Part shown: piece after piece, positions 5,573 to 26,992 of the stretch
How positions within the stretch are numbered: position 1 is the stretch's first letter
Layout of the letters: every line of letters begins with the position of its first letter
Source of the DNA: Gammaproteobacteria bacterium
GTDB lineage: Bacteria; Pseudomonadota; Gammaproteobacteria; Arenicellales; Poriferihabitantaceae
Direction of reading: 5' to 3'
Assembly: GCA_011088265.1 (NCBI GenBank)
Contig: JAALKB010000001.1
Span: 107,576-165,452 of the forward strand
Length of the DNA stretch: 57,877 nt
Notes under the pieces: model-generated
Databases searched by the model: none
What the model was told of the DNA's origin: nothing
Seen by the model: only the letters and a program-made list of their open reading frames with translations
Made by a program: the position numbers and the translations under genes

Positions 5573-6076
5573 CTATAAGGTATAAAAGTAGTGGCTACCG
5601 ACCTTGCCCACCAGAGTCTGCGTTGAGGCCCAATATGGCTCAACATTCTCCGCATGGTAATGAGTGGCATGGCCAATCTTCCACAGTTTTGCTCCATCCA
5701 GAAATAATCGAGCGGTAGTTAGAGCCACATCCCACGATTCAAAATTTCTGATAACATGGTGTCTAGCAGCTATTTGGGTCCAGCTGAACTGTTTTCTCTG
5801 CCAAACCACCTCGCAAACCGTGTCGGGATAGTCCGGGTTGGAAACGCGGTTCATTGTTACTGCAGCGATGGCCGCACGACCTTTAGGAGACTCACCACGT
5901 CCTTCATGGTAAATATTCATTGCGAGACAACCAATTTCCTGTCCTCTTGGAGGATTGGAAAAATCAAAATTTTTAGTGTGATCAAAATTCACGGCGTGCG
6001 CTGAATTTAAACTGACCATTCCAATTGCGATGGAAAAACCTATCCACCTTGCAACCAAATACAATTTTGTCAACAT
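5573..6076 (-). CDS. secreted SleB-like cell-wall hydrolase
   Basis: N-terminal signal-like segment, then the SleB-type core (NIYHEGRGES...AVTMNRV...VCEVVWQRKQFSW). Confidence 0.78.
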   Translation of the reverse strand: MLTKLYLVARWIGFSIAIGMVSLNSAHAVNFDHTKNFDFSNPPRGQEIGCLAMNIYHEGRGESPKGRAAIAAVTMNRVSNPDYPDTVCEVVWQRKQFSWTQIAARHHVIRNFESWDVALTTARLFLDGAKLWKIGHATHYHAENVEPYWASTQTLVGKVGSHYFYTL

Positions 6077-6334: not shown

Positions 6335-7909
6335 CTAGAACTCCCGAGTCGAACGAAACTCAACGTCGGGCCATCGATCCATAGCCAAATGCAAGTTAGC
6401 TCGATTGGGTGCAATATAAGCCAACGTATTCAGCCCATCTAACGCTAGATTCTGCTCATTTCGACGCCTAAACTCGCTTTCAATTTTAGGATCCTTGAAT
6501 TCAATCCAGCGGGCAGTCGTCACCGGGACTGCTTCAAATCTACAATCCACGCTGTACTCTGTTTTAAGACGGTGGGCCACCACATCAAACTGCAATACAC
6601 CCACAGCCCCAAGTACCAGGTCATTACTGGAGAATGGACGAAAGACCTGAGTCGCTCCTTCTTCGCTTAGTTGAATCAATCCCTTTTGTAGGGCTTTCGC
6701 TCGCAGCGGATCTGCCAATCTGACTCTTCGGAATAATTCAGGTGCAAAATTTGGGATACCTGTGAACTTGAGCTCTTCACCCTCCGTAAACGTATCCCCA
6801 ATCTGGATAGTGCCATGATTATGCAGGCCGAGAATATCCCCTGCAAAAGCTTCTTCTGCATTTCCTCTTCTGGCTGCCATAAATGTATGGGCATTATGCA
6901 CTGTCATGTTCTTACCCGTTCTCACATGGCGCACTTTCATCCCTTTATCAAATCGCCCGGAAGTGATTCTCAGAAAGGCAACCCGATCATGGTGCGATGG
7001 ATCCATATTGGCTTGAATCTTAAACACGAAACCGCTGAATTTTGACTCTTCTGCTGCTACCGTCCTGGCATCGGTTTTCCGGGGCTGTGGAGAGGGTGCG
7101 AATTCCACAAAATTGTCCATTAGTTCATCGGTACCCAGTCTATTCAGGGCCGAGCCAAAAAACACCGGCGCCAACCTGCCACCAAGGTATTCCTCTTGAT
7201 CAAACTCATGGCTTGCCCCTTGCACCAATTCGATTTCATCTCGCAGCTGACCGGCCAAAATACCAATGTGTTGATCAAGCTCTTCACTATCTAGCCCTTC
7301 AATAAATACATCGTTCTCCAAACCACCACGACCAGAGAAAAGGTGCACCACATCATCATATAGTCGATATACCCCAACAAATGCCTTACCCATACCAACA
7401 GGCCACGTCATTGGGGCACAACTAATTTTCAAGACATCCTCAATTTCGTCCAGAATATCGATGGGGTCCTGGCCTTCCCGATCCATTTTGTTTACGAAGG
7501 TCATGATTGGCGTATCCCTCAATCGGCAAACCTCCATCAGTTTTACTGTTCGATCTTCGACGCCTTTAGCGATATCGATAACCATTAAGGCGGAGTCCAC
7601 GGCAGTTAAAGTTCGATAGGTATCTTCCGAAAAATCAGCATGACCAGGAGTATCTAACAGGTTAATCGTACGTTCCTTGTATGGAAACTGCATTACGGAA
7701 GAAGTAACAGAAATACCCCTTTGTTTTTCCAATTCCATCCAATCCGAGGTGGCATGACGGTCGCTTTTTCTTCCTTTGACTGTGCCTGCAACCTGAATTG
7801 CGCCACCGTATTGTAATAAGCGCTCTGTCAGTGTTGTCTTACCAGCATCAGGGTGAGAAATAATGGCGAAAGTGCGTCGTTGCTGAATCTCTTCTAACAA
7901 ATTGCTCAT
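6335..7909 (-). CDS. prfC: peptide chain release factor 3
   Basis: 524 aa. GTPase G1 motif [15 protein letters not shown] and DTPGHADF, with full-length RF3 architecture. Confidence 0.95.
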
Positions 7910-7959
7910 GCTTGGTTTCTTTTTGCGAAAATATCGAACAGGACCATTCTAAATCCGGT

Positions 7960-8023
7960 GGGGCGCGATTATACGTTTAAATACCTCTAATCGGCATCCC
8001 ATTTAGATGTAAAATCGCGCCCC
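7960..8023. repeat. long nested inverted repeat in the prfC/uup divergent spacer
   Basis: GGGGCGCGATT (7960-7970) pairs with AATCGCGCCCC (8013-8023). The inner arms ACGTTTAAAT / ATTTAGATGT match at 8 of 10 positions. Confidence 0.85.
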
Positions 8024-8068
8024 TGGACATACCCTATGTATTGACAATCCTTTATTCGTTAACCCCTA

Positions 8069-9967
8069 ATGGCTTTACTGAAACTTACTGACATCTCAAT
8101 CGCATTCGGTGATCATGAACTGCTTGACAACGCCAACCTGACGATAGATTCCGGACAACGAATTGGTTTGCTGGGCAGAAACGGGGAGGGTAAATCAACG
8201 TTACTTAGGCTCATCAACGGTGAAATAAAACCTGACAATGGAGAAATTCGCTACCAGGTCGGTAGCACTATCGCCTCCCTGGAGCAGACTCCAGGGATGG
8301 CACAGGAGTCCACTGTGTTTGATGTTGTCGCTTCGGGTTTGGGATCCGTAGGAGAATGGATTTCAGAATATCAATCAATCTCGATTGCCAGAGATGATCA
8401 CGCCAGGGGCGATCATGAACTTACCATGCATAGGCTAGCTGAGCTGCAACAAAAGCTGGAAGCCTGTGATGGCTGGAATCTCTCCGGCAATGTGGAAAAA
8501 ACGCTTAGCCGACTGAGTCTACCATCCCAGGAGATGGTTAATTCACTCTCTGGGGGCTGGCAACGGCGAGTCTCTCTGGCAAGAGCACTGGTAAGCGATC
8601 CGCAGATTCTTTTACTTGATGAACCTACAAACCATCTCGATACCGACACCATTATCTGGCTTGAGAAACAGATCAGGCAATTCAAGGGCGCTATTTTGTT
8701 TGTCACCCACGATAGGGAATTTCTACAGAATGTGGCAACGGATATCGTCGACCTGGAAAGAGGCAAGCTGACAAAATGGGCAGGCACCTACGACGACTAC
8801 CTACGGCGCAAACAAGCATCCATGGAACAGGAAGCCCGGCAACACGCCGAATTTGACAAAAAGCTCGCTAGTGAAGAAATATGGATACGTCAGGGGATCA
8901 AGGCAAGGCGTACCCGGAATGAAGGACGGGTTCGTTCCCTGCAAAAAATGCGCGAACATAGATCGGCGCGTCGAAATAGAAAAGGCAATGTCAAACTTGA
9001 AATTGACAAATCCTCCAACAGTGGTAAATTGGTAATTGAAGCAAAAAACATTAGTCACACCTATGTAGACAAGACCATTATTAGCGATTTCTCCACACGT
9101 ATTTTACGTGGGGATCGAATTGGGCTTATCGGACCGAATGGAGTTGGAAAAACAACGCTACTTAAGATCTTGCTAGGGGAGCTAGAGGCAGAACGAGGAA
9201 CCATCAAGCATGGGACAAAGCTCGAAGTCGCCTATTTCGACCAACTCCGCAGTCAGATAAATCTAGATCAAACAGTAATAGATGTAATTGGTCAGGGCCG
9301 GGACCAAATTACCATTAACGGAAAATCAAAACACGTTATCAGCTACCTCTCCGATTTTCTTTTCACCCCTGCACGGTCACGATCTCCAGTCAGTAGTTTA
9401 TCTGGCGGAGAAAAAGCAAGAGTATTACTGGCGAAACTATTCAGCAAACCAACCAATGTGCTTGTCATGGACGAACCAACCAATGATCTCGACATTGAAA
9501 CCCTCGAATTATTGGAAGAACTATTATTACAATTCGAGGGGACATTACTTTTAGTCAGTCACGATAGAAAATTCATGGATAACGTTATCACCAGCTCGTT
9601 TTCATTTGAAGGAGATGGAAAAGTCAATGAATACATAGGCGGTTACTCGGAGTGGTTGAGTCAGGTTACCCAAAAACCGGAAACAACTCCAGCCAGCAAT
9701 TCGAAATCCATTTCCACAAAAAACATTAGCAAAACCACGACGGCTGGGAGGAAAAAATTGAGCTATAACGACCAGCGAGAGCTTGCTGGACTCCCAGAAA
9801 AAATCGAAAAATTGGAAAAACGACAAGAACTGCTAACCGAAACAACATCTGATGCTAGCTTCTATCAGCTTCCGCAAATGGAAGTATCAAGGGCTCTCCA
9901 GGAGCTCAAGGAAATCGGCGAGTCTCTGGATCAGTGTTATGAAAGATGGTCTGAACTGGATTCCTGA
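8069..9967 (+). CDS. uup: ABC-F family ATPase (Uup-like)
   Basis: 632 aa. Two ABC cassettes (GRNGEGKST/LSGGWQRR and GPNGVGKTT/LSGGEKAR), a charged linker and a C-terminal coiled-coil tail. No transmembrane domain. Confidence 0.85.
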   Translation: MALLKLTDISIAFGDHELLDNANLTIDSGQRIGLLGRNGEGKSTLLRLINGEIKPDNGEIRYQVGSTIASLEQTPGMAQESTVFDVVASGLGSVGEWISEYQSISIARDDHARGDHELTMHRLAELQQKLEACDGWNLSGNVEKTLSRLSLPSQEMVNSLSGGWQRRVSLARALVSDPQILLLDEPTNHLDTDTIIWLEKQIRQFKGAILFVTHDREFLQNVATDIVDLERGKLTKWAGTYDDYLRRKQASMEQEARQHAEFDKKLASEEIWIRQGIKARRTRNEGRVRSLQKMREHRSARRNRKGNVKLEIDKSSNSGKLVIEAKNISHTYVDKTIISDFSTRILRGDRIGLIGPNGVGKTTLLKILLGELEAERGTIKHGTKLEVAYFDQLRSQINLDQTVIDVIGQGRDQITINGKSKHVISYLSDFLFTPARSRSPVSSLSGGEKARVLLAKLFSKPTNVLVMDEPTNDLDIETLELLEELLLQFEGTLLLVSHDRKFMDNVITSSFSFEGDGKVNEYIGGYSEWLSQVTQKPETTPASNSKSISTKNISKTTTAGRKKLSYNDQRELAGLPEKIEKLEKRQELLTETTSDASFYQLPQMEVSRALQELKEIGESLDQCYERWSELDS

Positions 9968-12472: not shown

Positions 12473-13477
12473 TCAAAAATTTTCTTCTTCTACCTCGAGA
12501 TAACTCAGGCTTACAACCCGGCCAATGCTCTGTTCAAATCCATCCCAATCAGAAAATTCGGAAGTTCTCTCAACGACAATGGGCTTTATTTCAAAATCAG
12601 ACAGTCCCTCCTCAAACTTTTCCTGCACGACCCGGTGTATCAGGTCGTTCAATCTCTTCGCATTTTGAATAATTCCTACCCCGTCTGTCATGCCATGGCC
12701 CGGTACTACTGTTTCAGGAGCAAGCCCAATAAGATGATCAAGGGTTTCGGACAAGCCGCCGAAATGCCCATCATCCATTCTTCCAAGCCGTTTGTTAAAC
12801 ACCAGGTCACCGGTAAACAGGACCTTTCCCGGCATCACCATGATAGCAATATCAGAAGTTGTGTGGGCCTTACCCTTGTGATGAATAGAAAACACTCGAT
12901 CACCTATTTGGATCTGGTCTCCATCAACCACAGGCGAATCCGGAATTACTGCAACCGTTCCTTTTGTTCCACCGTTTGTCAGACGCCCCATTAAGTCGAC
13001 CCAGTTTTCGGCTTCGCCGCTGCGAGCCAGCTGAATCAAATCAGGATGAGCATAGCTCCTGGCCTCAGGATATATATCGTGAATCGCCTGATTAGCCAAC
13101 CAGTGGTCACCGTGGATGTGAGTGGAAAACAATGCTACAACCGGCAAATCAGTCACGGCTTTTATCTGCCCCAATACCATTCTTCCTGTTTGCACACTGC
13201 TGCCAGCGTCAACCACAACAACTCCTTCAGATGTAACAATGAAACCGGGGTTATTCATAAAGCCCTGGTTACTGGGGCTTGGTAAACCAGAAGGGCCGTG
13301 AATCACATAAACCGAATCGCTAACTTCAATTGCATGATATTTATCCCTTAGAGGCCCAGCCTCCTCTGAAGCATGGAGCACATTCCCAGAGACCACCAAC
13401 AATGCGGCGCCCACCAGAATCATACCGGCGGCATTGTCAAAAAGCCGTTTCGTTTTGTAAAAAAAGTGGATAGTCAT
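12473..13477 (-). CDS. secreted MBL-fold metallo-hydrolase
   Basis: 334 aa. Signal-like N-terminus and the HxHxDH motif (STHIHGDHW). Confidence 0.8.
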   Translation of the reverse strand: MTIHFFYKTKRLFDNAAGMILVGAALLVVSGNVLHASEEAGPLRDKYHAIEVSDSVYVIHGPSGLPSPSNQGFMNNPGFIVTSEGVVVVDAGSSVQTGRMVLGQIKAVTDLPVVALFSTHIHGDHWLANQAIHDIYPEARSYAHPDLIQLARSGEAENWVDLMGRLTNGGTKGTVAVIPDSPVVDGDQIQIGDRVFSIHHKGKAHTTSDIAIMVMPGKVLFTGDLVFNKRLGRMDDGHFGGLSETLDHLIGLAPETVVPGHGMTDGVGIIQNAKRLNDLIHRVVQEKFEEGLSDFEIKPIVVERTSEFSDWDGFEQSIGRVVSLSYLEVEEENF

Positions 13478-14885: not shown

Positions 14886-15005
14886 CTCCGTGATATAAAG
14901 GATAGCCAGTACTATCTGCTTACAAATTTAGCGCATCAACACTTGTCAATATATGCAAATGTATATTAAAGTTATTACATTGATTACTAAAGAGACAACA
15001 AAACG

Positions 15006-15704
15006 ATGACTGAACACGATCTGGCAAACTCCGACAGCCCTCAAAGGGCGCTATTGATCGGTCGCCCAGTCCCATCGTTTCAGGCACGGAGCACCCATGG
15101 GGACATCTCTTTAGAGGATTATCGAGGAAAATGGCTGGTTATGTTTTCCCACCCCGCTGACTTCACACCCGTTTGTACTTCTGAATTTATCGCGTTCCAA
15201 CGCTCAATTCACGAATTTGAAAACCGGAATTGTGCGCTGCTTGGACTCTCCGTCGACAGCATTTATTCACATGTCGCATGGGTTAAGAATATCCAGGAAA
15301 AATTTAATGTTGAGATTAGCTTCCCAATAGTCGAGGACATCTCCATGGCCGTCTCGTTCGCTTATGGAATGCTTGATGCTTCCTCTCAAAGCACGGCCAC
15401 GGTTAGAGCTGTATTTTTCATCGACCCATGCAGCATTCTTAGAGCGAAAATCATCTATCCCATGCAGGTAGGTAGGTCAATATCAGAAATCATTCGCACT
15501 TTAAGCGCTTTACAAGCTGCTGATGAGACGGGCATGTCCGCCGCGGAAGGCTGGCAACCCAACGAGCCTTTAACCCCGTTAGCACCTACCACGGTCTCTC
15601 AAGCTAACTCAGTGACAACTTCCAGCGAACACGCCGAATGGTATTACACAGAAAGAAAAGTCATTCCACCGAATGAGAACAAACCGTCCACTCGGAAACA
15701 CTAA
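15006..15704 (+). CDS. 1-Cys peroxiredoxin (Prx6-like) with a C-terminal extension
   Basis: 232 aa. Peroxidatic Cys context DFTPVCTSEF. Confidence 0.9.
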   Translation: MTEHDLANSDSPQRALLIGRPVPSFQARSTHGDISLEDYRGKWLVMFSHPADFTPVCTSEFIAFQRSIHEFENRNCALLGLSVDSIYSHVAWVKNIQEKFNVEISFPIVEDISMAVSFAYGMLDASSQSTATVRAVFFIDPCSILRAKIIYPMQVGRSISEIIRTLSALQAADETGMSAAEGWQPNEPLTPLAPTTVSQANSVTTSSEHAEWYYTERKVIPPNENKPSTRKH

Positions 15705-16172
15705 ATGCTAGCTAGTGAGAAAAAATTGGTGCATCACGAAGATAACACGCCGGGGCGCGACTGTGATCTCGACCAGCTGTGCAATACGTTGAAAGTGCTT
15801 GCCAATTCACAAAGGCTAAAAATACTTCGTCACCTACTCGATGGAGAAGCAGCAGTTGGAGAACTGGAATCCATGCTGGGACTAAAGCAACCCAACCTTT
15901 CTCATGAACTTCGAAAGCTCAGGGAGAGCGACATCGTTAAAACCCGGCGACAATCAAAGGTAATTTTTTATTCGATCTCTACTGAAAGCACTGAGAATAT
16001 GATTAGAAATGCCCTGAACCTCGACCCAAAAAGGGAAAGGCAACACCAACCCATTCTCTCTACAAATGAAACCATTAAAAACCCACTTCATTGGGAAAAA
16101 CAGGTTCACAACAGCCACTCCAATATGCCGAAAGAAGAATGCGGACACTTTCCCACCATACAATATCGTTAA
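15705..16172 (+). CDS. ArsR/SmtB-family transcriptional regulator (BigR/SoxR-like core, His/Cys-rich tail)
   Basis: Its ATG directly abuts the peroxiredoxin TAA. wHTH core LKVLANSQRLKILRHL...LSHELRKLRESDIVKTRRQSKVIFYSI. Cys at positions 20, 26 and 146. Confidence 0.9.
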   Translation: MLASEKKLVHHEDNTPGRDCDLDQLCNTLKVLANSQRLKILRHLLDGEAAVGELESMLGLKQPNLSHELRKLRESDIVKTRRQSKVIFYSISTESTENMIRNALNLDPKRERQHQPILSTNETIKNPLHWEKQVHNSHSNMPKEECGHFPTIQYR

Positions 16173-16197
16173 AAAATGCTCACATATGGAGAATATC

Positions 16198-16392
16198 ATG
16201 CCCCCCATACACCCAATAATTCCTGCCAGCGTTATGGTTTTTGTCATGCTGCTTACAACAGCTCCATTCGCTCATGCAGTTAACACTGACAGCGCATCTA
16301 CCATCTCTCATTCTCTATCCCATGATGTGCCGATTTCGATGCAGAGCGATAGCGAGGAAAATCCCGAAGAAGAGGAAGAACCCGACTGTTAG
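16198..16392 (+). CDS. 64-aa Sec-signal micro-protein, acidic, ending in a C-terminal Cys
   Basis: GGAG sits 6 nt upstream of the ATG at 16198. Hydrophobic h-region with an AHA-V cleavage-like site. The mature part of about 37 aa ends ...SEENPEEEEEPDC-stop. Same strand as arsR and the rhodanese gene, and lies between them. Confidence 0.45.
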   Translation: MPPIHPIIPASVMVFVMLLTTAPFAHAVNTDSASTISHSLSHDVPISMQSDSEENPEEEEEPDC

Positions 16393-16519
16393 AGTGGTCT
16401 AAGCAATATTCACAAGCATGTTGAAAACACACTGTTGAAGAGCGATATCCATCATGATACCTAAGATTTTTTCAATACCCGATTTTGTAACCAACTGATT
16501 AACCAACGAGGAAAATAAA

Positions 16520-17221
16520 ATGAAAATCCATAAATTAATAACCATAACTGCGCTCACAGCAGGGCTGAGTTTCAATGCATTAGCTGAAAATAAACCTGTA
16601 GGCATCACACCAGATATGATGTCCATAACGGTGACTCACAATGGCGAAGCTGTTGAAATAAAACGGAATCAGGATAATTCCAATACCGTCATTCCAGCTT
16701 TTGCCAAGACTTCACGGCATTGCCCTCCTTTTTGCATCCAGCCCATGTCCCTTGCCGAAGGCGTGGAGACCCTTGGAGAACTGGAAGTACTTGACTATGC
16801 GGCCAGGATGGAAGGTGGTGACAAGAGCATTCTTCTAATTGACTCCCGCACACCAGATTGGGTAGCGAAAGGCACCATTCCTAGCGCCGTCAATATTCCA
16901 TGGACAGAACTTGTACCCGCCAAAGGTGCAACAACAGAGGGTATTGTCAGTGTCATGAGAGACCAGTTCAATGTTAAAGTAGTGGAAGGGGCGGATGAAA
17001 TCGCGATTGACGATGCAATAGCAAACAATCAGGTATCGGAAGTATTCGATTATTCTGATGCGAGAACACTTGTTCTATTCTGCAATGGGATGTGGTGTGG
17101 TCAATCCCCAGCCAGCATTAAGACTCTCCTCAAATATGGCTACCCTGCGGAAAGCATCAAATGGTATCGCGACGGAATGCAATCCTGGGAAATTCTTGGT
17201 TTCAATACTGCAAAACCATAG
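16520..17221 (+). CDS. periplasmic rhodanese-domain sulfurtransferase
   Basis: GAGGAA RBS and a signal peptide (...SFNALA-ENK). CPPFC motif and a rhodanese active-site loop (FCNGMWCGQSP). Confidence 0.8.
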   Translation: MKIHKLITITALTAGLSFNALAENKPVGITPDMMSITVTHNGEAVEIKRNQDNSNTVIPAFAKTSRHCPPFCIQPMSLAEGVETLGELEVLDYAARMEGGDKSILLIDSRTPDWVAKGTIPSAVNIPWTELVPAKGATTEGIVSVMRDQFNVKVVEGADEIAIDDAIANNQVSEVFDYSDARTLVLFCNGMWCGQSPASIKTLLKYGYPAESIKWYRDGMQSWEILGFNTAKP

Positions 17222-17305: not shown

Positions 17306-17332
17306 AAGGGCGACGTAAGTCGCCCTTTTTTT
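17306..17332 (+). terminator. rho-independent terminator after the rhodanese gene
   Basis: AAGGGCGAC-gtaa-GTCGCCCTT followed by a T-run. It lies between convergent genes. Confidence 0.8.
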
Positions 17333-17343
17333 GCCCTAAACTG

Positions 17344-18111
17344 CTAAGGCAAAACTAGCTCGATTGGATATCCCACTTCGGGCAGAGGATTACTAGAAAC
17401 CACTTTAATCAGCGCGAACCCGGGACGGGTATACCTATCCACCGACTCCACACGACCACTAAAATGGTTAACCTGCCCCGACGCTTTAACGCGTAGTTCG
17501 AGCACCTCCCCGTTCTGCGGTACTGCCTGCTCACCTATTTGCATACTGATAGTCACAACTCTTTGCCTGGAACCAAGCAAGATGACTGGCAAATTAGCAG
17601 AATCAATAGCGATACGCTCACCGGCATGGAAACCAAGCCTGAGGACATCTCCATCCACCGGAGCAACGAGTCGAGTCTGTCCAAGTTCAAAACGACGTTT
17701 AGCATACTCCGCTTTTGCCTCATCCAATTCCATCATCGCCTGTAAAAAGGTCAGCTCGGATAGTTGGAGTTCTACCCGGGATAAAGAACCCTCCTCATAA
17801 AGAACAGTATCTCTTTCGAAAGATCGTTTGGACTCCTCAAGTTGGGCAGCAATCGCCACTTTTCTCGATTTGGCCGATTCGAGGGAAAAATAGACATGTT
17901 CATTTTTCAATTCTGCCAGCAAATCCCCTGCTTTCACTGCATCCCCGACCTTAACATGTACCTTTCCGATTTCTCCATCAACCCCCGGATTCAATTTATA
18001 AACATGCGCGAATTCGACACGCCCGGTAAAGTTATCAGCGTAGGGACTCCCTGAAAACCCAAAAAGAGCCATGGCTAAACAACAAAGTATCAACAATTTA
18101 TTATTTGTCAC
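17344..18111 (-). CDS. short periplasmic HlyD/membrane-fusion-like adaptor
   Basis: 255 aa. Cleavable signal, split lipoyl-like motif (GKVHVKVGDAVKAGDLLAEL ... VAPVDGDV), a coiled-coil hairpin and a beta-barrel. No membrane anchor. Confidence 0.7.
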   Translation of the reverse strand: MTNNKLLILCCLAMALFGFSGSPYADNFTGRVEFAHVYKLNPGVDGEIGKVHVKVGDAVKAGDLLAELKNEHVYFSLESAKSRKVAIAAQLEESKRSFERDTVLYEEGSLSRVELQLSELTFLQAMMELDEAKAEYAKRRFELGQTRLVAPVDGDVLRLGFHAGERIAIDSANLPVILLGSRQRVVTISMQIGEQAVPQNGEVLELRVKASGQVNHFSGRVESVDRYTRPGFALIKVVSSNPLPEVGYPIELVLP

Positions 18112-18179
18112 AATGAACTATACCTTCAATAAATTTCATATAAACCCAACCCTAAATAGATCGATTTCTGAGACAACGA

Positions 18180-19490
18180 TTAATTCAGATCACCCTCAGC
18201 AAAAGAAACACCTCCCAATAGCGCGCCAATCTCTTCCCAGACGAAAGCACGTTCGTATTCTGCTTTTTTCTGGCGATATAGCGCCTTTGCCACCTCAGCG
18301 TTCGCACTTCCAATACGCGCACGGACCTCCATTTCGTATTGCAGCCTCACTTTATCCAACTCCAACTCCCGATAAAGCAGTTCTGCCTTTGCCGCACCAA
18401 CTTCGCTATTTAGCACACCAAGTTTATGGACCAACTCTAGAACTTTTTCCCTCAGTCTATATTCCAGAGAATCCAACTCCGCCCTGGCCTTTTCGACCTG
18501 AATCTGTTGCTGCTCAATGTCCGCCTTCTTACGCAAACGTTGCCCAATTGGGATGTCCAAATAAACCACTGCGCGGTATTGGTCACGACTACCTGAGAAA
18601 TGTTCCGCATACTCGGTGCCCTGGACTTGCAAACCCAATGTCGGATCCCATTTTCGGGAAACCAGTAACAACCTCTGCTCCGCTTCCTCCAGGTTTAGTC
18701 TACCCCGGGCAATTGCTGGAGACTCGCTTAGAACTCTCGCGAAAAGCTCATCGTAGTCCGGCAACTCCCTTTCATAATTTGATAACAAAGGCTCCACCAC
18801 CTGGCTAGGAAAGGCGTTGGGTCTATTTAACACCAGCGCTAATCGTAAACGGCTCATCCGTTGGACATTGGCAGCCTCAAGCCGGCTCACCAGAAATGAC
18901 TGATACCGGGACTCTAGCCGGCGGACTTCTATTTCGGAGGTTTCTTCATATATATCCATACTATCTCGGGCGCGGTCAAAGGCCAGATACGATAGCGTCA
19001 TTTCCTCGTCTATGGCTGCATAACCATAATCGGCAATAATGACATCAAAAAAAGCACGAATAATATCGACCCTCATTTGTAAATGTGAACGGCGCTGATG
19101 CTCGGCTAATGCAGACATTCTGGTATCAATAATTTGATTAGACGCCGAATCACGCCCAAAACGACTGATAGGTTTATGAATAAAAATAGATATCCGGCTA
19201 TCGTCAACAAAATCGTGCCCCGGATCCATCAACCTATCCACCTGACGCCACTCCAACCTCATATCAACTTCTGTTCCCATTTCCGCTTTAAGCGATAACC
19301 TTTCCATCTCCGCCTTTTTGATTTCCAGGCCTGAGGTCCTAAGACGCGGATGCTTCTCATCCAACATGGAAAGTGCCTGAGCAAGCGTTAATCTCCGGGG
19401 AAAGGGCTGATCATCCGCCATCGCGATGCTGGAGGTGAATACAACGAACATGAATACGAATGACAGCAGAAGATTCATGGTCACAACCAT
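18180..19490 (-). CDS. TolC-family outer-membrane factor
   Basis: The ORF runs to 19646, but a signal peptide (MVVTMNLLLSFVFMFVVFTSSIAMA-DD) starts at the internal Met codons at 19490/19478. Two OEP-type repeats rich in coiled-coil sequence. Confidence 0.72.
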   Translation of the reverse strand: MVVTMNLLLSFVFMFVVFTSSIAMADDQPFPRRLTLAQALSMLDEKHPRLRTSGLEIKKAEMERLSLKAEMGTEVDMRLEWRQVDRLMDPGHDFVDDSRISIFIHKPISRFGRDSASNQIIDTRMSALAEHQRRSHLQMRVDIIRAFFDVIIADYGYAAIDEEMTLSYLAFDRARDSMDIYEETSEIEVRRLESRYQSFLVSRLEAANVQRMSRLRLALVLNRPNAFPSQVVEPLLSNYERELPDYDELFARVLSESPAIARGRLNLEEAEQRLLLVSRKWDPTLGLQVQGTEYAEHFSGSRDQYRAVVYLDIPIGQRLRKKADIEQQQIQVEKARAELDSLEYRLREKVLELVHKLGVLNSEVGAAKAELLYRELELDKVRLQYEMEVRARIGSANAEVAKALYRQKKAEYERAFVWEEIGALLGGVSFAEGDLN

Positions 19491-19661
19491 TGCAGACGCA
19501 AATGCAGACACTTGTGACGAAGTGGTACCTGGACTGCTGGAACGGTTTCCCAGCAATCGGAAACCAGTACCACCCACCCAGATACTCAGCGGTCCTAAAG
19601 AGATTCGTTTTTCATGAGGATTCATTTTATATAACAAACAATCCATTAACGGGAGATGTTT

Positions 19662-22074: not shown

Positions 22075-22503
22075 ATGACGAGTTTCACTCCTATTCAATC
22101 CTTACTAGGCGGCATGCTAATTGGAACCGCCGTGATTATTTTAATGGCCTTTTTAGGCCGTATAGCTGGCTCCAGCGGAATCATCGGTAGCCTTCTACCC
22201 CCCAAATTGGCCAATGATAAAAGCTGGCGCATCGCCTTTTTAATCGGGTTGCTCATCGCTGCATTTCTATTGGATACGGTCGCCGATTATTCAGCCGTCA
22301 TTCAAAACATCACCACTGAGCCAATGCTAATCATAGGTGGGTTACTCGTTGGCATTGGCGTAACTCTCTCCTCTGGCTGCACTAGTGGACATGGTATATG
22401 CGGCCTGGCGCGCCTTTCCCCCCGATCCATTGCAGCCACTCTAACCTTCATGGCATCCACGGCTGTGACTGTTTTTATCGCCAAGCATTTAATAGGACAA
22501 TAA
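22075..22503 (+). CDS. YeeE/YedE-family membrane protein (half-size, sulfur transport)
   Basis: 142 aa and multi-pass. Conserved GCTSGHG(I)CG motif. Confidence 0.85.
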   Translation: MTSFTPIQSLLGGMLIGTAVIILMAFLGRIAGSSGIIGSLLPPKLANDKSWRIAFLIGLLIAAFLLDTVADYSAVIQNITTEPMLIIGGLLVGIGVTLSSGCTSGHGICGLARLSPRSIAATLTFMASTAVTVFIAKHLIGQ

Positions 22504-22505
22504 AC

Positions 22506-22922
22506 ATGATCATCATCATTTCATTACTTGCCGGGGTGATTTTTGGCTTCGGAATTCTGACTTCCGGAATGGCAAACCCTGCAAAAGTACAAAACTTTTT
22601 CGATGTAGCCGGTACATGGGACCCGAGTCTAGCGTTTGTCATGGGTGGAGCGCTGCTTATCACAACACCGGGTTACTACCTCATTCTTAAGATGAACAAA
22701 CCCTTGCTCGCCGAAAAATTCAATCTATCCACGAATAAGAAAATAGACTCTACACTGATCATTGGCTCTATCATCTTTGGCATAGGTTGGGGCATTACTG
22801 GGTATTGTCCCGGTGCAGTATTACCCGCAGTAGGGACAGGTAATCATAGCGCTCTACTTTTTTGTGTTGCTATGGCGACGGGGATGATGGCAGCCCGATT
22901 AATTCGAAGCAGGACTCTCTAG
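22506..22922 (+). CDS. YeeE/YedE-family membrane protein (second half-size subunit)
   Basis: ATG at 22506, 3 nt after the previous stop. Hydrophobic, with a GYCPG motif. The longer ORF starting at 22398 overlaps the previous gene and is rejected. Confidence 0.85.
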   Translation: MIIIISLLAGVIFGFGILTSGMANPAKVQNFFDVAGTWDPSLAFVMGGALLITTPGYYLILKMNKPLLAEKFNLSTNKKIDSTLIIGSIIFGIGWGITGYCPGAVLPAVGTGNHSALLFCVAMATGMMAARLIRSRTL

Positions 22923-23025
22923 GGACTGTTGACATTCGGCAATAAAAAAACATCAGATTAACTCATAGAACTTCTCTCGATCCTGCAACTATCGTAAAGA
23001 CCAAATTCAGATTGAAACTCACCCA

Positions 23026-23898
23026 ATGAACATACTTACCAAGCCAGAGGTTACCGGTTTTTTTGATAAAGACACAAACACCGTCAGCTACGTTGTAAGA
23101 GACCCTACGTCACAATCCTGCGCGGTCATCGATTCTGTCACAGATCTAGACTACGCTGCGGGACGAATCCATTACCAATCAGCGAACCAGATTATTGAAC
23201 ATATCAGTCAAAATGACCTGATACTGGAATGGATAATTGAAACTCATGCCCATGCAGATCACCTATCTGCTGCTCCATATATACAGGAAAAGCTCGGGGG
23301 GAAAATTGGAATTGGACAAAAAATTACCATGGTTCAGAAAGCATTTGGGCAGGTTTTCGGAAATAGTGAGCAATTTCGAACCGACGGCAGTCAATTTGAT
23401 CGACTGTTCTCTAACAACGATTCCTATGAGATTGGAAACATGAAAGCCGTTGCCATTTCGACTCCCGGGCACACCCCTGCGTGCATGAGCCATGTTATCG
23501 GTGATGCCATTTTCGTGGGAGATACTATTTTTATGCCAGATGGTGGCACAGCAAGAGTTGACTTTCCGGGAGGAGACGCCCGCCAGTTATTCCAGTCAAT
23601 TCAGAGAATCCTTTCTTACCCCGAAGAAACCCGACTGTTTGTTTGCCATGATTATGGACCAAATGGGCGCGATTTTAGATGGCAAACATCTGTCAGAGAG
23701 CAAAGAGAAAATAGCATTCATGTTAGAGATAATATGACAGAGGAAGAATTTATCACCATTCGGACTGAGCGTGATAAGCAGCTCGGCATGCCGAAGCTTA
23801 TCATTCCTTCAATTCAGGTGAATATTCGGGCTGGACATCTACCTGAAAAAGATCCGGGGGGTACCCGATTCATTAAAGTTCCCCTTAATGTTTTATGA
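23026..23898 (+). CDS. MBL-fold hydrolase, persulfide-dioxygenase (Blh/ETHE1)-like
   Basis: 290 aa. ETHAHADHLS metal motif and GHTPAC. The context matches H2S-detoxification operons. Confidence 0.78.
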   Translation: MNILTKPEVTGFFDKDTNTVSYVVRDPTSQSCAVIDSVTDLDYAAGRIHYQSANQIIEHISQNDLILEWIIETHAHADHLSAAPYIQEKLGGKIGIGQKITMVQKAFGQVFGNSEQFRTDGSQFDRLFSNNDSYEIGNMKAVAISTPGHTPACMSHVIGDAIFVGDTIFMPDGGTARVDFPGGDARQLFQSIQRILSYPEETRLFVCHDYGPNGRDFRWQTSVREQRENSIHVRDNMTEEEFITIRTERDKQLGMPKLIIPSIQVNIRAGHLPEKDPGGTRFIKVPLNVL

Positions 23899-23983
23899 TT
23901 TCTTCCTACAGGATAAGAACGTAGAACAACACAAAATCGGGGAACCACTGGTGTGATAGTCGCTCTAACAGGCGTACAAATCC

Positions 23984-24568
23984 TTGATTATTGGCAACAT
24001 GAAACGACACCTACCTGCATACATAAAACGGATTAGCTCCCGTCTCTGGATGTGCCTCTTTATTACTCTTTCAGGTGAGGCGCAATCAGACCAGGAAGCA
24101 CTGGGGAAGATCCATAACTGGATCAAGAATGAACATCCATTTGTCAACCACATTCAAGGAGAGCGGTTAGAATCAAAATTGGGCGATGATTCAAGCCTTG
24201 TACTGTTTGATGTGAGAGAGCAGTCCGAGTACGAAATTAGCCATCTTCAAAATGCAATCCGGGTTGATCCGGATATTAGCGCGAAAGAGTTCGGTGAACT
24301 TTACGGATCAAACCTCATGAATAAGACAGTAATATTTTATTGTTCGGTTGGAAGAAGATCATCAGTACTTGCAGAAAAAGTACAAAAGCAGCTTTTGGAA
24401 CAGGGTTCAACTCGGGTACTAAATCTGGAAAATGGGATATTTGGCTGGCACAATGAAACCAGAAAACTAACGCGGGGAACTGATGAAACCGAATTTGTCC
24501 ATCCTTATAGCTGGCGCTGGGGAAGGCTCATTGAGCGCGAGGATTTAATTCGGTACGACCTGGACTAA
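23984..24568 (+). CDS. rhodanese-domain protein
   Basis: 194 aa. Active-site loop YCSVGRRSS. An alternative start lies at 23999. Confidence 0.8.
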   Translation: MIIGNMKRHLPAYIKRISSRLWMCLFITLSGEAQSDQEALGKIHNWIKNEHPFVNHIQGERLESKLGDDSSLVLFDVREQSEYEISHLQNAIRVDPDISAKEFGELYGSNLMNKTVIFYCSVGRRSSVLAEKVQKQLLEQGSTRVLNLENGIFGWHNETRKLTRGTDETEFVHPYSWRWGRLIEREDLIRYDLD

Positions 24569-24571
24569 ACG

Positions 24572-24973
24572 TTAACGACTACCCACCAGAGTAATCGCTT
24601 TTTCGATGGATTTCTCAAGATAATAACCATAATAGTCCGGGGTCATTAACCCAACCATTCGTTCAACCAATTCGTTTTTTTCATCGTCAATGAAAATCAC
24701 AGTTGGTGTGAAATCTGAATCGTAAGCAGAAAGAAAATCTCTGGTCGAGATTACCCGACCACCTTTATCGATAATGGTTTCACCCGCGTCAATGGAGACT
24801 TTAGCAAAGATCGCCCGATCTGCAAATTCTCCACTGGAAATAATCGCTGCAAAAAACTCACCTTCCACCCGTCGACAATATGGGCAATCAGATTGGTCTA
24901 CCATGAGCACCACTGGCTGGCTGGTTTCTTTCGCGAGTTTCGATATGGCTTGCCAATTTTCTGCTATTCTCAT
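24572..24973 (-). CDS. cytoplasmic SoxW/COG2143-type thioredoxin-fold protein
   Basis: 133 aa with no signal peptide. SDCPYCRRV and FTPTVIFID, the same module as at 13764, 14400 and 19662. Confidence 0.75.
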   Translation of the reverse strand: MRIAENWQAISKLAKETSQPVVLMVDQSDCPYCRRVEGEFFAAIISSGEFADRAIFAKVSIDAGETIIDKGGRVISTRDFLSAYDSDFTPTVIFIDDEKNELVERMVGLMTPDYYGYYLEKSIEKAITLVGSR

Positions 24974-25116: not shown

Positions 25117-25359
25117 CTATTGAGGAACCCTCGCCTGCCACAAGCCCCCTTCACGCTCATGCTGAGCCACAGCATCAGAGGCTTGTTCATGGGCTTTCGC
25201 TACTAATTTCACTGCCTCTTCATTCTCACCAGCTTCATTAGCAGCTTTCGCTTTTTTCAGGAGCTTTTTGGTATCTCTCCATTCAAAACCTAATTTAGCG
25301 GCGGCCTGGCGTTGTTCATCAGCGGCTTTCCATGAAGCTTCAAATTCATCACTTGCCAT
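25117..25359 (-). CDS. small Ala/Lys/Glu-rich helical protein of unknown function
   Basis: 80 aa counted from the ATG that overlaps the soxB stop (ATGGCAAGTGA). The ORF extends to 25437 with a weak signal-like prefix. Composition is low-complexity helical. Confidence 0.4.
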   Translation of the reverse strand: MASDEFEASWKAADEQRQAAAKLGFEWRDTKKLLKKAKAANEAGENEEAVKLVAKAHEQASDAVAQHEREGGLWQARVPQ

Positions 25360-26992
25360 GGCGCTGGAAATCAACCCCTCGGACCATGTCGCCCCCAGAT
25401 TGAAAATAGGGATCTGGATCAAATAGATTATCAGCAACTGATTCGAGTACGGTTAGCAAATTTTCCCCGGTCATGTCCTGAACATAGGTCTCGCCATAGG
25501 TCATAGCCGTCTGGGTCATAACATCTTCCATGGTAATCCATTCCCCCGATAACACACTGGTACCCCAACGAAATCCGGGGGACAACGAAATATCTGCTCC
25601 ATATTCATGCCGAATTGCGTCACAAATAAGCTGATCCCAGGTGCCCATAAAATTCCCTCTTCGAAACAGAACCCGGTCAGACTTCGCCAATTTTTCTGTC
25701 AGAATAGCGTCATATTTCCGGCCAAGACGAAGTGGATTTACCTCAAACGCCTCGGCACGGGACTCGATCACCTGATCATCATAAGCCTGCCCTCTCAATG
25801 TAGAAATAAAGCTGGCGACTCCGGGATCAGCATCAAGTAGTTTTTCGAATACGGGGACCAGGTGATACTGCATTCCTTTAACTTCACCTTCATCAATATC
25901 AAAGTCCATCACACCAACAAATTTTCCATTGGTTCCCGCATTTGTGACCATGCACGTTCCGCCATCAGGGGTAGTCACATTAATTGGGACCGGAACGCCA
26001 TCATGAGTGTGTCCACCAAAAATAGCATCAATGCCATTGACTCTGGATGCGAGTTTTAAATCCACGTCCATTCCATTATGAGACAAGAGGATAATAGCGT
26101 CCGGAGCTTCTGTTTCCTGGATGGTATGAACCAATGCAATCATCTCTTCTTCCCTTATTCCAAATGACCAGTCAGGAAAAAAGCCCTGGGGATTAGCATT
26201 GGCTGTACGTGGGAAAGCCTGTCCTATAACGCATATTTTTCTTCCAGCAATAACACGGGATGTGTATGGTTTGAATGCTATCCCTTCGTCTTCATCAAAC
26301 AATCCCAACCCACCATATCTATCTGTCATCTCAAAATAGGAATCATCAAATAAGCTGTCTTCCTTAATCCGAATATTTTGGCTCAGAAACTCACCCTTGA
26401 AGCGCTTGAGATTGGCAAGAAACTCCTCCTCGTGATAGGTAAACTCCCAATGGCCCGTCATAATATTCACATCAAGCAGATTGGAGGCATCGACCATATC
26501 CACTCCCCGGGTCCAAAGCGCAGTAGCCGATCCCTGCCATAAATCGCCTCCATCCATAGTAAGCGTATTCTCAATACCTCCCGCCTGAGCCCGCATTCGA
26601 TCAAGTAGTGTTTTTATCTGGGCAAACCCTCCCATCCGACCATATTTCCGCGCATTGGTCTCAAAGTCCAGATTGGTATACGCATAGGATTCGATGCTGC
26701 CCGGTTCAATTCCAGCTCTATCCAACAGGGCTCTTCCTACAAGATGGGGGAGCTGTCCCTTAGCCTCGCCTACGCCAAGGTTAACATTGGGTTCCCGGTA
26801 GTAAACCGGTAGCAGCTGGGCATGGGTGTCTGTGGTGTGAAGCACTCGGACACTCCCCTTTATGGGAATATCGTATAGAGTTTCCAGGCTTTCCGCATTG
26901 GCCAATTCAAGAATATCATTGCGTACGGCCAGGGTACCTGTTGCAGCGAAACCAATCAATTTCAAGATAGTTCTTCGATTAAGTTTTGTCAT
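25349..26992 (-). CDS. soxB: thiosulfohydrolase SoxB (apparently C-terminally truncated)
   Basis: Tat signal (NRRTILK), metallophosphoesterase motifs (HTTDTHAQ, GGHTHD) and a 5'-nucleotidase C-domain. The ORF stops 8 codons after the conserved GGDMVR motif. Confidence 0.85.
   Translation of the reverse strand: MTKLNRRTILKLIGFAATGTLAVRNDILELANAESLETLYDIPIKGSVRVLHTTDTHAQLLPVYYREPNVNLGVGEAKGQLPHLVGRALLDRAGIEPGSIESYAYTNLDFETNARKYGRMGGFAQIKTLLDRMRAQAGGIENTLTMDGGDLWQGSATALWTRGVDMVDASNLLDVNIMTGHWEFTYHEEEFLANLKRFKGEFLSQNIRIKEDSLFDDSYFEMTDRYGGLGLFDEDEGIAFKPYTSRVIAGRKICVIGQAFPRTANANPQGFFPDWSFGIREEEMIALVHTIQETEAPDAIILLSHNGMDVDLKLASRVNGIDAIFGGHTHDGVPVPINVTTPDGGTCMVTNAGTNGKFVGVMDFDIDEGEVKGMQYHLVPVFEKLLDADPGVASFISTLRGQAYDDQVIESRAEAFEVNPLRLGRKYDAILTEKLAKSDRVLFRRGNFMGTWDQLICDAIRHEYGADISLSPGFRWGTSVLSGEWITMEDVMTQTAMTYGETYVQDMTGENLLTVLESVADNLFDPDPYFQSGGDMVRGVDFQRHGK

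Follow-up and report, generated by a model that had tools for sequence, protein, structure and literature searches.

We analysed a stretch of 57,877 nucleotides (57.9 kb, hereafter the window) from contig JAALKB010000001.1 of a gammaproteobacterium of the Poriferihabitantaceae, with focus on a 64-codon open reading frame (ORF) that lies directly upstream of the gene of a periplasmic rhodanese-like protein. This ORF is one member of a genuine family of small proteins, secreted and disordered, that had no name so far and is a strong candidate for a new periplasmic carrier of thiol or sulfur. A first-pass annotation of the window had read the two genes as a candidate periplasmic carrier system for sulfur or metal, an interpretation that is partly supported by the analysis reported here. 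The two genes and their elements are located as follows.

16198–16392, + strand: gene of the micro-protein with EPDC tail, 64 aa, stop included (from the ORF list and syntenic homologues)
16188–16191, + strand: ribosome-binding site GGAG, spaced 6 nt from the ATG at 16198 (direct sequence reading)
16198–16278, + strand: signal-peptide-like segment, residues 1–27, with h-region IIPASVMVFVMLLTTAPF and AHA-V site
16339–16350, + strand: internal motif M-Q-S-D (SMQSD in the window), semi-conserved across the family
16366–16389, + strand: acidic tail with C-terminal EEEEEPDC, Cys64 being the final residue
16520–17221, + strand: periplasmic rhodanese-like protein, 233 aa (PF00581)
16520–16585, + strand: Sec-type signal peptide of the rhodanese, residues 1–22, MKIHKLITITALTAGLSFNALA followed by ENKPVG (site ALA-ENKPVG, from the sequence)
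16721–16735, + strand: CPPFC, Cys68-x3-Cys72, in the N-terminal extension of the rhodanese, within the conserved block TSRxCPxFCIQP
17081–17098, + strand: active-site loop CNGMWC, Cys188-x4-Cys193 (CNGMWCGQS from residue 188)

The encoded peptide reads MPPIHPIIPASVMVFVMLLTTAPFAHAVNTDSASTISHSLSHDVPISMQSDSEENPEEEEEPDC, with MPPIHPIIPASVMVFVMLLTTAPFAHA ahead of the proposed cleavage point and VNTDSASTISHSLSHDVPISMQSDSEENPEEEEEPDC between this point and the stop codon. All elements that the first-pass annotation had described for the ORF, namely the GGAG, the signal-like segment, AHA-V, an acidic mature part of about 37 residues and the terminal Cys, are present in the sequence, and its start position 16186 corresponds to an alternative ATG in the same frame (MENIM...). 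The mature peptide is 37 aa long and contains 11 Asp/Glu and two His but no Lys/Arg; its only Cys is the terminal residue. AlphaFold2, run with a small alignment, places the sole helix at residues 7–20, within the hydrophobic segment, and predicts the other 44 residues of the peptide, the mature part included, to be without secondary structure. The hydrophobic stretch and the AHA-V site look like a Sec signal peptide. The n-region contains no Lys or Arg ahead of the hydrophobic core, a feature in which nearly all homologues differ, so that the hydrophobic segment could remain uncleaved as a membrane anchor; the tail of the window peptide would reside on the periplasmic side either way. An imperfect inverted repeat at 16182–16212, which the scan flagged as resembling a minus-strand terminator (12 pairs including G–T), covers both the ribosome-binding site and the start codon of the peptide gene and might influence initiation of its translation.

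A peptide family found by synteny

In a protein search, the 64-aa peptide matched only itself, and 14 public contigs carry it as a called gene of this length; taken by itself, this would suggest an orphan ORF. Synteny overturned this view. When 185,579 species genomes were scanned with the rhodanese as seed, 80 loci were obtained, and peptide ORFs were found by synteny at 47 loci from Gammaproteobacteria and some Alphaproteobacteria, in all 47 on the same strand as the orthologous rhodanese and 38–180 nt 5' of it. Nearly every locus with a rhodanese of ~45% or more identity has such a small upstream ORF. In each of the 47 ORFs, the signal peptide is followed by a linker that evolves fast and by the end [E/D]-[P/D]-[D/E]-Cys, to which one residue is sometimes added.

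The family is without a Pfam or NCBIfam model, and scans of four members against both collections gave no meaningful match; weak matches of the peptides to HvfA, LytA and ExtH were attributed to the signal peptide or to low complexity and discarded. Only ~20 called members were recovered by profile searches, which covered 5.8 billion proteins and 1.84 billion representative proteins; these members carry the name "hypothetical protein" (one UniRef entry is named "Lipoprotein"), and most genome annotations omit the gene. Full-text literature searches on the peptide or EPDC together with a periplasmic rhodanese returned no description of the peptide. This module of micro-protein and enzyme, which spans sponge symbionts, Thiothrix/Leucothrix, Chromatiales and some Alphaproteobacteria, is nearly invisible to annotation and is revealed by synteny.

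Conservation of the ORF and its Cys in syntenic loci had been set beforehand by the first-pass annotation as one of the checks that could overturn its reading; when this check was run, the C-terminal Cys proved to be kept in 47/47 members. The further statement that the Cys is the very last residue is correct for the window peptide; over the family, the Cys is last in 18 members and penultimate in 29, where it is followed by D, E, N or K and the stop. Counted back from the Cys over the 47 members, position −1 is D or E in 46, position −2 is P in 42 and D in 5, and position −3 is E in 44 and D in 3, and the C-terminal Glu-Pro-Asp-Cys appears to be the only constrained functional element of the peptide. 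Its conservation acts at the protein level. For Pro, Asp and Cys, the third codon position varies freely, with CCA/CCG/CCC/CCT used 6/8/11/14 times for the Pro of the motif and TGC/TGT 30/14 times for the Cys, and all three types of stop codon are in use across the family. Of 11 close pairs, 10 show a ratio of non-synonymous to synonymous substitution rates (dN/dS) below 1 and one has saturated dS; in the ten pairs the ratio amounts to 0.08–0.58 for the peptide and 0.03–0.23 for the rhodanese.

One could still ask if the ORF is spurious and its GA-rich tract a DNA or RNA element 5' of the rhodanese instead of a coding sequence, as the direct protein search with its self-match and the uncalled gene in most genome annotations would allow. 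Against this stand the frame, the signal peptide and the stop after the Cys (or after one more residue), which are kept in 47 loci despite indels in the linker, the codon pattern and dN/dS values given above, and the Rfam search, which found no RNA family in the window. We regard a spurious ORF as effectively refuted and, for practical purposes, excluded.

The pairing of peptide and rhodanese was confirmed to exceed chance by far. Six-frame reading of 822 kb of related loci gave 46 ORFs that have the end [DEG][PD][DE]C(x) and a length of at least 30 aa, and 45 of these 46 lie directly 5' of the rhodanese on the same strand; within the window, the peptide ORF is the only one with such an end. 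As an independent test that set out from the motif, a metagenome scan for EEEEPDC followed by a stop returned 22 matches, among them 8 ORFs with signal peptide and acidic tail. Seven of the eight have the same rhodanese directly 3' and the eighth is cut at the contig end, and the remaining matches, which lack a signal peptide, are due to chance.

Constraint is seen in three parts of the peptide, the export signal, the EPDC end and, in most non-lipoprotein members, a short internal motif; the remainder drifts. Most members carry a Sec type-I signal peptide. Lipobox-like sites (LTAC, MTAC, LSAC, LWGC) are found in several Thiothrix members and in the one from Thiohalophilus (loci L024, L030, L031, L033 and L042), and the window peptide has no lipobox of the form [LVI][ASTVI][GAS]C, as AHA-V is without Cys at this place. 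The linkers range from ~20 to more than 100 residues and are poly-Glu, Glu/Lys with a KKK patch or, in Thiothrix, rich in Ala/Glu/Lys/Pro. About one third of the members, the window peptide not among them, contain a second Cys near the start of the mature sequence. The first-pass annotation had put forward a swinging tail that bears a terminal Cys, an idea that fits the variable linker, the AlphaFold2 model without structure in the mature part and the lipid anchoring of some members.

A second motif, hydrophobic-[F/Y/M/A]-Q-[S/T]-[D/E], is found in most of the non-lipoprotein members; LFQSD, VYQSD and IAQSD recur across other clades, and M48 and Q49 are invariant among the closest relatives of the window peptide. 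As a conserved element upstream of the tail, it would be in line with the peptide being the precursor of a processed or modified secreted product, similar to a ribosomally synthesised and post-translationally modified peptide (RiPP) or a signalling peptide, in which this motif serves as processing or recognition site, the rhodanese modifies the Cys and the product is released. Such a precursor would also share the fast-evolving core between fixed ends with many precursor peptides, and RiPP precursors with Sec or lipoprotein signal peptides exist (PMC13056109). We nevertheless consider this very unlikely, because the Q-S-D motif is missing in lipoprotein-type members and because neither a protease, an MNIO, radical-SAM or other maturase nor a dedicated exporter is conserved beside the pair. 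The best RiPP match in NCBIfam, to HvfA, reaches 17.3 bits against a cutoff of 95 in one Thiothrix member only, so that the family does not resemble the MNIO-dependent bufferin/oxazolin (HvfA) precursors, and a recurrent maturase-like (DUF692) cluster was not found among the neighbours.

The partner rhodanese

The rhodanese gene starts 127 nt past the peptide gene, and its product matches PF00581 over residues 100–224 with 39.6 bits (cutoff 22.2), in agreement with a rhodanese domain. All 80 homologues have the same N-terminal signal architecture, and the mature start, KPVGITPD, is conserved, which speaks against the concern, raised in the first-pass annotation, that the enzyme might be cytoplasmic. 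In the AlphaFold2 model, which shows the expected fold, Cys188 ends the central strand (183–189), the usual site of the catalytic Cys of rhodaneses, and a helix starts at residue 195. The model has a predicted local distance difference test (pLDDT) value of 76 overall and below 50 in the CPPFC region, the placement of which relative to the active site is therefore of low confidence. Best Foldseek matches are to single-domain rhodaneses, namely RDL2, BH2092 and the rhodanese-like domain of MOCS3 (probability 0.72–1.0, template modelling score ~0.57–0.62 on the target), and a sequence search of the PDB with the rhodanese gave only marginal matches with E values of 0.02 or worse and no close solved structure. 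The subfamily is large, with 7515 proteins at an E value of 1e-10 or better, annotated only as 'rhodanese-like domain-containing protein'.

Two elements characterise this subfamily. The CNGMWCGQS loop is longer than that of PspE or GlpE, contains no Arg or Lys and carries a second Cys five residues on; F187–P197 are invariant, and FCNGxWCGQSP is present in all 80 homologues, peptide-linked or not. In the N-terminal extension, C68, P69, P70, F71 and C72 are invariant in the alignment and the TSRxCPxFCIQP block is found in all 80 homologues, again with or without peptide. The loop residue x of CNGxWC is Met or Leu in 46/46 peptide-linked rhodaneses and Pro or Asn in 29 peptide-less ones, and five Met-type rhodaneses are without detectable peptide, three of them at contig ends. 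This covariation of loop residue and peptide presence is suggestive. The isoelectric point of the mature rhodanese is 4.7 in the window and varies from 4.4 to 9.0 across clades; we therefore rejected the idea that the acidic tail binds a basic enzyme by charge attraction.

The two invariant Cys pairs and the loop without basic residue could also belong to a redox partnership, in which the terminal thiol of the peptide exchanges electrons with the CX4C and CX3C pairs, either by reducing them or by forming a peptide or mixed disulfide, and acts as thiol buffer or regulatory pseudo-substrate. For TsoB (NF045694), a rhodanese/DsbD-fusion selenoprotein, a published table gives the motif UxxxxU (PMC13188914), which is spaced like CNGMWC, a hint that both loop cysteines are redox-active. 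The window rhodanese, thioredoxin-like proteins and ArsR match models of the Tso system weakly, so that the parts list of rhodanese, DsbD-like thioredoxin domain and ArsR-type regulator recurs along with the two-chalcogen spacing, and in the clade of the window the pair is found amid periplasmic thioredoxin-like proteins and a peroxiredoxin. However, scores of 15–45 bits face cutoffs of 115–805, the window proteins are separate and without selenocysteine, and the parallel of U/U with C188/C193, drawn from motif spacing, is a lead only. We know of no function established for TsoB. Moreover, most loci have no thioredoxin-like neighbours, and a peptide with one Cys is unable to resolve its own mixed disulfide. 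Taken together, we regard a redox role instead of sulfur transfer as unlikely, though it is the main rival of the carrier reading.

Tandem rhodanese pairs were observed in metagenome-assembled genomes (MAGs) of a Thiohalomonadaceae member (L044, 1451–2900) and of Thioploca (L049, 5329–6576); the Thioploca copies display a divergent loop, CNGPWCNKS, and have no peptide.

Operon structure and regulator

Upstream and downstream of the pair, the following features were located.

14943–14972: promoter-like site ahead of the peroxiredoxin gene
15006–15704, + strand: peroxiredoxin, prx (AhpC-TSA; PRK13189 238 bits, above cutoff), its stop abutting the arsR start
15705–16172, + strand: ArsR/SmtB-family regulator, arsR (HTH_5), ending 25 nt before the peptide gene
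17306–17327, + strand: terminator-like hairpin with T-run, 3' of the rhodanese gene

From the prx–arsR junction and from the position of the terminator-like hairpin after the rhodanese gene, with no terminator-like site found between the genes, we infer that prx, arsR, the peptide gene and the rhodanese gene form one operon, which is probably regulated by ArsR. After the generic ArsR/SmtB model, the regulator matches best the model of BigR, with 71.8 bits and below the cutoff of 155. It carries a C-terminal extension of ~50 residues, ending in a conserved ECGxFP, and another conserved Cys in LCxxLKxLAN (window, L001, L013 and L014), a two-Cys arrangement that would fit a persulfide or redox sensor, although the Cys of ECGxFP is located on this long tail.

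The interval between arsR and rhodanese, in which the first-pass annotation had located the ORF, does not define the family. An arsR gene 5' of the pair is found only in L001–L011 (7/11) and L013–L015, and peroxiredoxin, ArsR, thioredoxin-like proteins, RND adaptor and outer-membrane factor occur with the pair only in the sponge-symbiont clade, with L013–L015 keeping just the peroxiredoxin and ArsR. Among clustered ORFs within 5 kb in the 80 loci, no third consistently linked gene was found. Many loci have housekeeping neighbours (UvrB-, Mfd- and LolE-like, identified by eye). Peptide and rhodanese thus remain the only constant pair, with all other neighbours being clade-specific or housekeeping.

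This distribution also bears on the metal-binding alternative. A Cu/Ag/Zn-binding peptide had been suggested in the first-pass annotation on the basis of its His/Met/Asp/Cys content and the metal-sensor-like tail of ArsR, and more broadly the tail with its Cys might bind Cu, Ag, Zn, Cd, Hg or As as chaperone or buffer, with the rhodanese as an accessory. Poly-carboxylate and thiolate form a plausible soft/hard ligand set, the operon in the window contains an ArsR/SmtB regulator and adjoins an RND adaptor and an outer-membrane factor, and in L008 a SCO1/MauG fusion is encoded near the pair. Yet the His/Ser-rich SHSLSHD is idiosyncratic and missing from the closest relatives, in which the rhodanese is 83–84% identical and the peptide only 36–38%, with one His. 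Across all members 0–2 His and 0–3 Met occur, none of them position-fixed, so that the Cu/Ag/Zn reading loses its main basis, and no His/Met motif of the PcoE/SilE type was found in the peptide. The single conserved Cys offers no CxxC or CxC site, ArsR and efflux genes are limited to one clade, and ArsR itself leans towards the sulfite/persulfide sensor BigR, below cutoff as stated. With sulfur enzymes instead of metal pumps as recurring neighbours and the rhodanese as the only constant partner, we consider metal binding as the function of the tail to be very unlikely.

Sulfur metabolism in the window and in the hosts

Further genes in the window point to sulfur metabolism.

25349–26992, − strand: SoxB, full-length thiosulfohydrolase (TIGR04486 equivalog, 645 bits, cutoff 550)
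25117–25437, − strand: SAXB-like (SoxAX-binding) small ORF (69.9 bits, cutoff 95), directly 3' of soxB and overlapping its 3' end
22075–22503 and 22398–22922: halves of a YeeE/YedE-type transporter (Sulf_transp and DUF6691, respectively), two ORFs with a 105-nt overlap
23026–23898: Blh-like persulfide dioxygenase, with a match to NF040641 that is limited to the dioxygenase half of this model
23984–24568: second rhodanese
24572–24973: thioredoxin-like gene, on the strand opposite to the neighbouring cluster

The genes at 22075–24973 resemble a cluster of the sulfide-detoxification type, in which the two transporter ORFs may overlap because a start was chosen wrongly. The window further encodes a TsuA-like transporter and CysG. 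In agreement with the first-pass annotation, SoxY and SoxZ were not found among the scanned window ORFs of 100 aa or more; SoxB is present, however, and the genome thus holds at least part of a Sox system. Given SoxB, SoxYZ is probably encoded elsewhere in the genome, which would make the peptide an additional carrier and no substitute for SoxY.

At related loci, sulfur enzymes near the pair include SoxZ (L034, ~1.5 kb away and the only such locus), a SoxB-like protein (L016), a flavoprotein similar to sulfide:quinone oxidoreductase (L045) and the flavoprotein of flavocytochrome c sulfide dehydrogenase, FccB (L057). The hosts, among them Thiothrix, Leucothrix, Cocleimonas, Thiohalophilus, Chromatiales, the Olavius Gamma3 symbiont and sponge symbionts, are largely known sulfur oxidisers or their relatives.

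Proposed role of the terminal thiol

With selection on the terminal Cys and exclusive coupling to the rhodanese, the most economical explanation is that the terminal thiol meets the catalytic cysteine or cysteines of the rhodanese. Rhodaneses require a thiophilic co-substrate, and we know of no periplasmic glutathione pool comparable to that of the cytoplasm. Since the periplasm would thus offer no substantial glutathione, and since flexible arms with the Cys at the last or penultimate position are an established carrier design and the neighbourhood is one of sulfur oxidation, transfer of sulfane sulfur is favoured over other uses of the thiol. We therefore tentatively propose, at somewhat less than an even chance, that the terminal thiol of the peptide is the dedicated co-substrate or persulfide carrier, as acceptor or donor, of the adjacent periplasmic four-Cys rhodanese.

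All chemical steps of this proposal are inferred. Peptide and rhodanese would be co-transcribed, in the window as part of the unit of prx, arsR, peptide and rhodanese, and both exported via Sec. The peptide would then be either free in the periplasm (~37 aa) or tethered to the membrane, as suggested by the lipobox in some Thiothrix and Thiohalophilus. The rhodanese would take sulfane sulfur from thiosulfate, polysulfide or persulfide onto Cys188, and the flexible tail would place the terminal Cys into the active site and depart as persulfide, with the reverse direction being equally possible. The loaded carrier could hand its sulfur to Sox enzymes, to transporters of the TsuA/YeeE type or to stored sulfur. 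In chemical terms, Asp-Cys-COO− on a tether would take the place of a low-molecular-weight thiol, with the difference that it is encoded by a gene.

Several observations weigh against this proposal, plausible as it is. Members of the rhodanese subfamily in Magnetococcales and Rhodobacterales have no peptide nearby, so that the peptide is not obligatory for the enzyme, and the correlation between loop residue and peptide is confounded by phylogeny. With an acidic rhodanese in the window, the poly-Glu tail is not explained by plain charge attraction; it might instead provide an extended soluble tether, raise the thiol pKa against adventitious oxidation or bind cations, all of which is speculative. 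Under the oxidising conditions of the periplasm, an unpaired Cys could end up blocked in a disulfide, and the signal peptide in the window is without a basic n-region. Lastly, a loop that lacks Arg and Lys and contains a second Cys would point to thiol–disulfide chemistry as much as to a thiosulfate sulfurtransferase.

If the carrier proposal is correct, its consequences reach beyond this locus. Periplasmic rhodaneses are widespread, though to our knowledge no physiological thiol acceptor has been established for them. A co-encoded Cys-terminal peptide would supply this missing acceptor, and the question of what periplasmic rhodaneses pass their sulfur to becomes testable with simple reagents such as a synthetic peptide of ~15 residues. 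It would additionally provide a handle on the movement of sulfane sulfur through the envelope of sulfur oxidisers.

A thiol-bearing protein of the envelope for sulfur mobilisation is postulated in the Rohwerder–Sand model (summarised in PMC1142338), and in the literature searched no gene was found to be assigned to this role. In a broader version of the carrier proposal, which we consider quite unlikely, proteins with EPDC tail would be of this kind and act as a disordered "protein-borne low-molecular-weight thiol" of the envelope, soluble or lipid-anchored and loaded or unloaded by the rhodanese, and would keep zero-valent or sulfane sulfur soluble and mobile in the periplasm.

Comparison with known sulfur carriers and rhodaneses

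SoxY is a periplasmic carrier that presents its reactive Cys on a flexible C-terminal tail to partner enzymes, and the peptide resembles it in location and in the tail Cys, an analogy already drawn in the first-pass annotation, with SoxB encoded in the same window. In contrast to the peptide, SoxY is folded, ends in a GGCGG tail and obligately pairs with SoxZ, whereas the peptide is without predicted fold or Pfam match, carries the EPDC motif and has a rhodanese as its partner. A SoxY profile domain was not detected, EEPDC or EPDC(x) takes the place of GGCGG in 47/47 members, and no adjacent soxZ was found among the scanned ORFs of the window.

DsrC has a C-terminal arm with the motif ...PTGCA, in which the reactive Cys stands one residue before the end (PMC8477390). 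The penultimate position is shared by 29/47 peptides, as would be the association with a sulfurtransferase that we propose here. Unlike the peptide, DsrC and TusE are cytoplasmic, folded proteins of ~100 aa without signal peptide, and there is no sequence similarity; neither the fold of the DsrC family nor the PTGCA arm was found in the peptide by Pfam and NCBIfam scans and AlphaFold2, which leaves the near-terminal Cys as the only analogous feature.

Like PspE of E. coli and Sud of Wolinella, the rhodanese itself has the rhodanese fold, carries a signal peptide and ends its central strand with a Cys; its match to PspE is weak (E = 0.09). It differs from them by an N-terminal extension of ~55 aa with CPPFC, the longer two-Cys loop without Arg or Lys and a large insertion. 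We know of no dedicated peptide partner for PspE or Sud.

A likeness to glutathione and other low-molecular-weight thiols can be drawn by analogy, in that the peptide would be an anionic Cys acceptor with carboxylates flanking the thiol. It differs in being made by the ribosome, on a tether of 20–100 residues and sometimes with a lipid anchor, and is thus not a diffusible metabolite. No known family includes the peptide, which may, by analogy, represent a novel design among the sulfur or thiol carriers that bear their reactive Cys on a flexible C-terminal arm. Should the carrier proposal hold, the disordered tether with terminal Cys would be a new architecture beside SoxY, DsrC/TusE and TusA.

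Further observations at the window and related loci

On the minus strand at 17344–19646, genes for an RND periplasmic adaptor (255 aa, unusually short) and an outer-membrane factor adjoin the rhodanese gene. No inner-membrane pump gene is adjacent to them, and they are conserved only in L001–L011. Most of these loci (about 6800–8600) contain genes for a CBS-domain protein and a class-V aminotransferase between rhodanese and RND adaptor, neither of which is present in the window. In the closest relatives (L108, 2811–3505; L111, 1565–2313), a PhdYeFM antitoxin/PIN toxin pair lies 3' of the rhodanese, and the genes of RND adaptor and outer-membrane factor are absent.

Elsewhere in the window, at 12473–13477 on the minus strand, a metallo-beta-lactamase-fold protein with signal peptide is encoded, which matches the SoxH-related 'quinoprotein relay system' zinc metallohydrolases with 152 bits (cutoffs 280–300). 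The rhodanese gives a weak match of 23 bits to the PQQ-associated CXXCW protein of the same relay system.

In Thiohalophilus and in MAGs of Thiohalomonadaceae, a sigma-54 activator is encoded on the minus strand beside the pair (L042, 6776–8143; L044, 2959–4359; L045, 1075–2463). Its N-terminal PAS domain contains a Cys/His-rich stretch, CYK[IV]SHH.D.PC.QHGEHCPL, and the activator is a possible dedicated regulator of the pair in that clade. In an Acidiferrobacterales MAG (L008, 1025–4436), the pair is followed by a protein of the SBP56 family (MtoX-like), which is the family of the methanethiol oxidase MtoX, and by a fusion of SCO1/SenC with a di-haem peroxidase (MauG-like).

In seven Rhodobacterales loci, mostly from Celeribacter (L061–L064, L068, L071 and L072, at about 5600–6000), a highly conserved gene encoding ~105 aa precedes the peptide-less rhodanese and overlaps or abuts its start. 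The encoded protein (…TFETTPGVAQDLMEAL…YSQWQKREDYQAML…) looks, by eye, like a small monooxygenase-like (ABM) domain.

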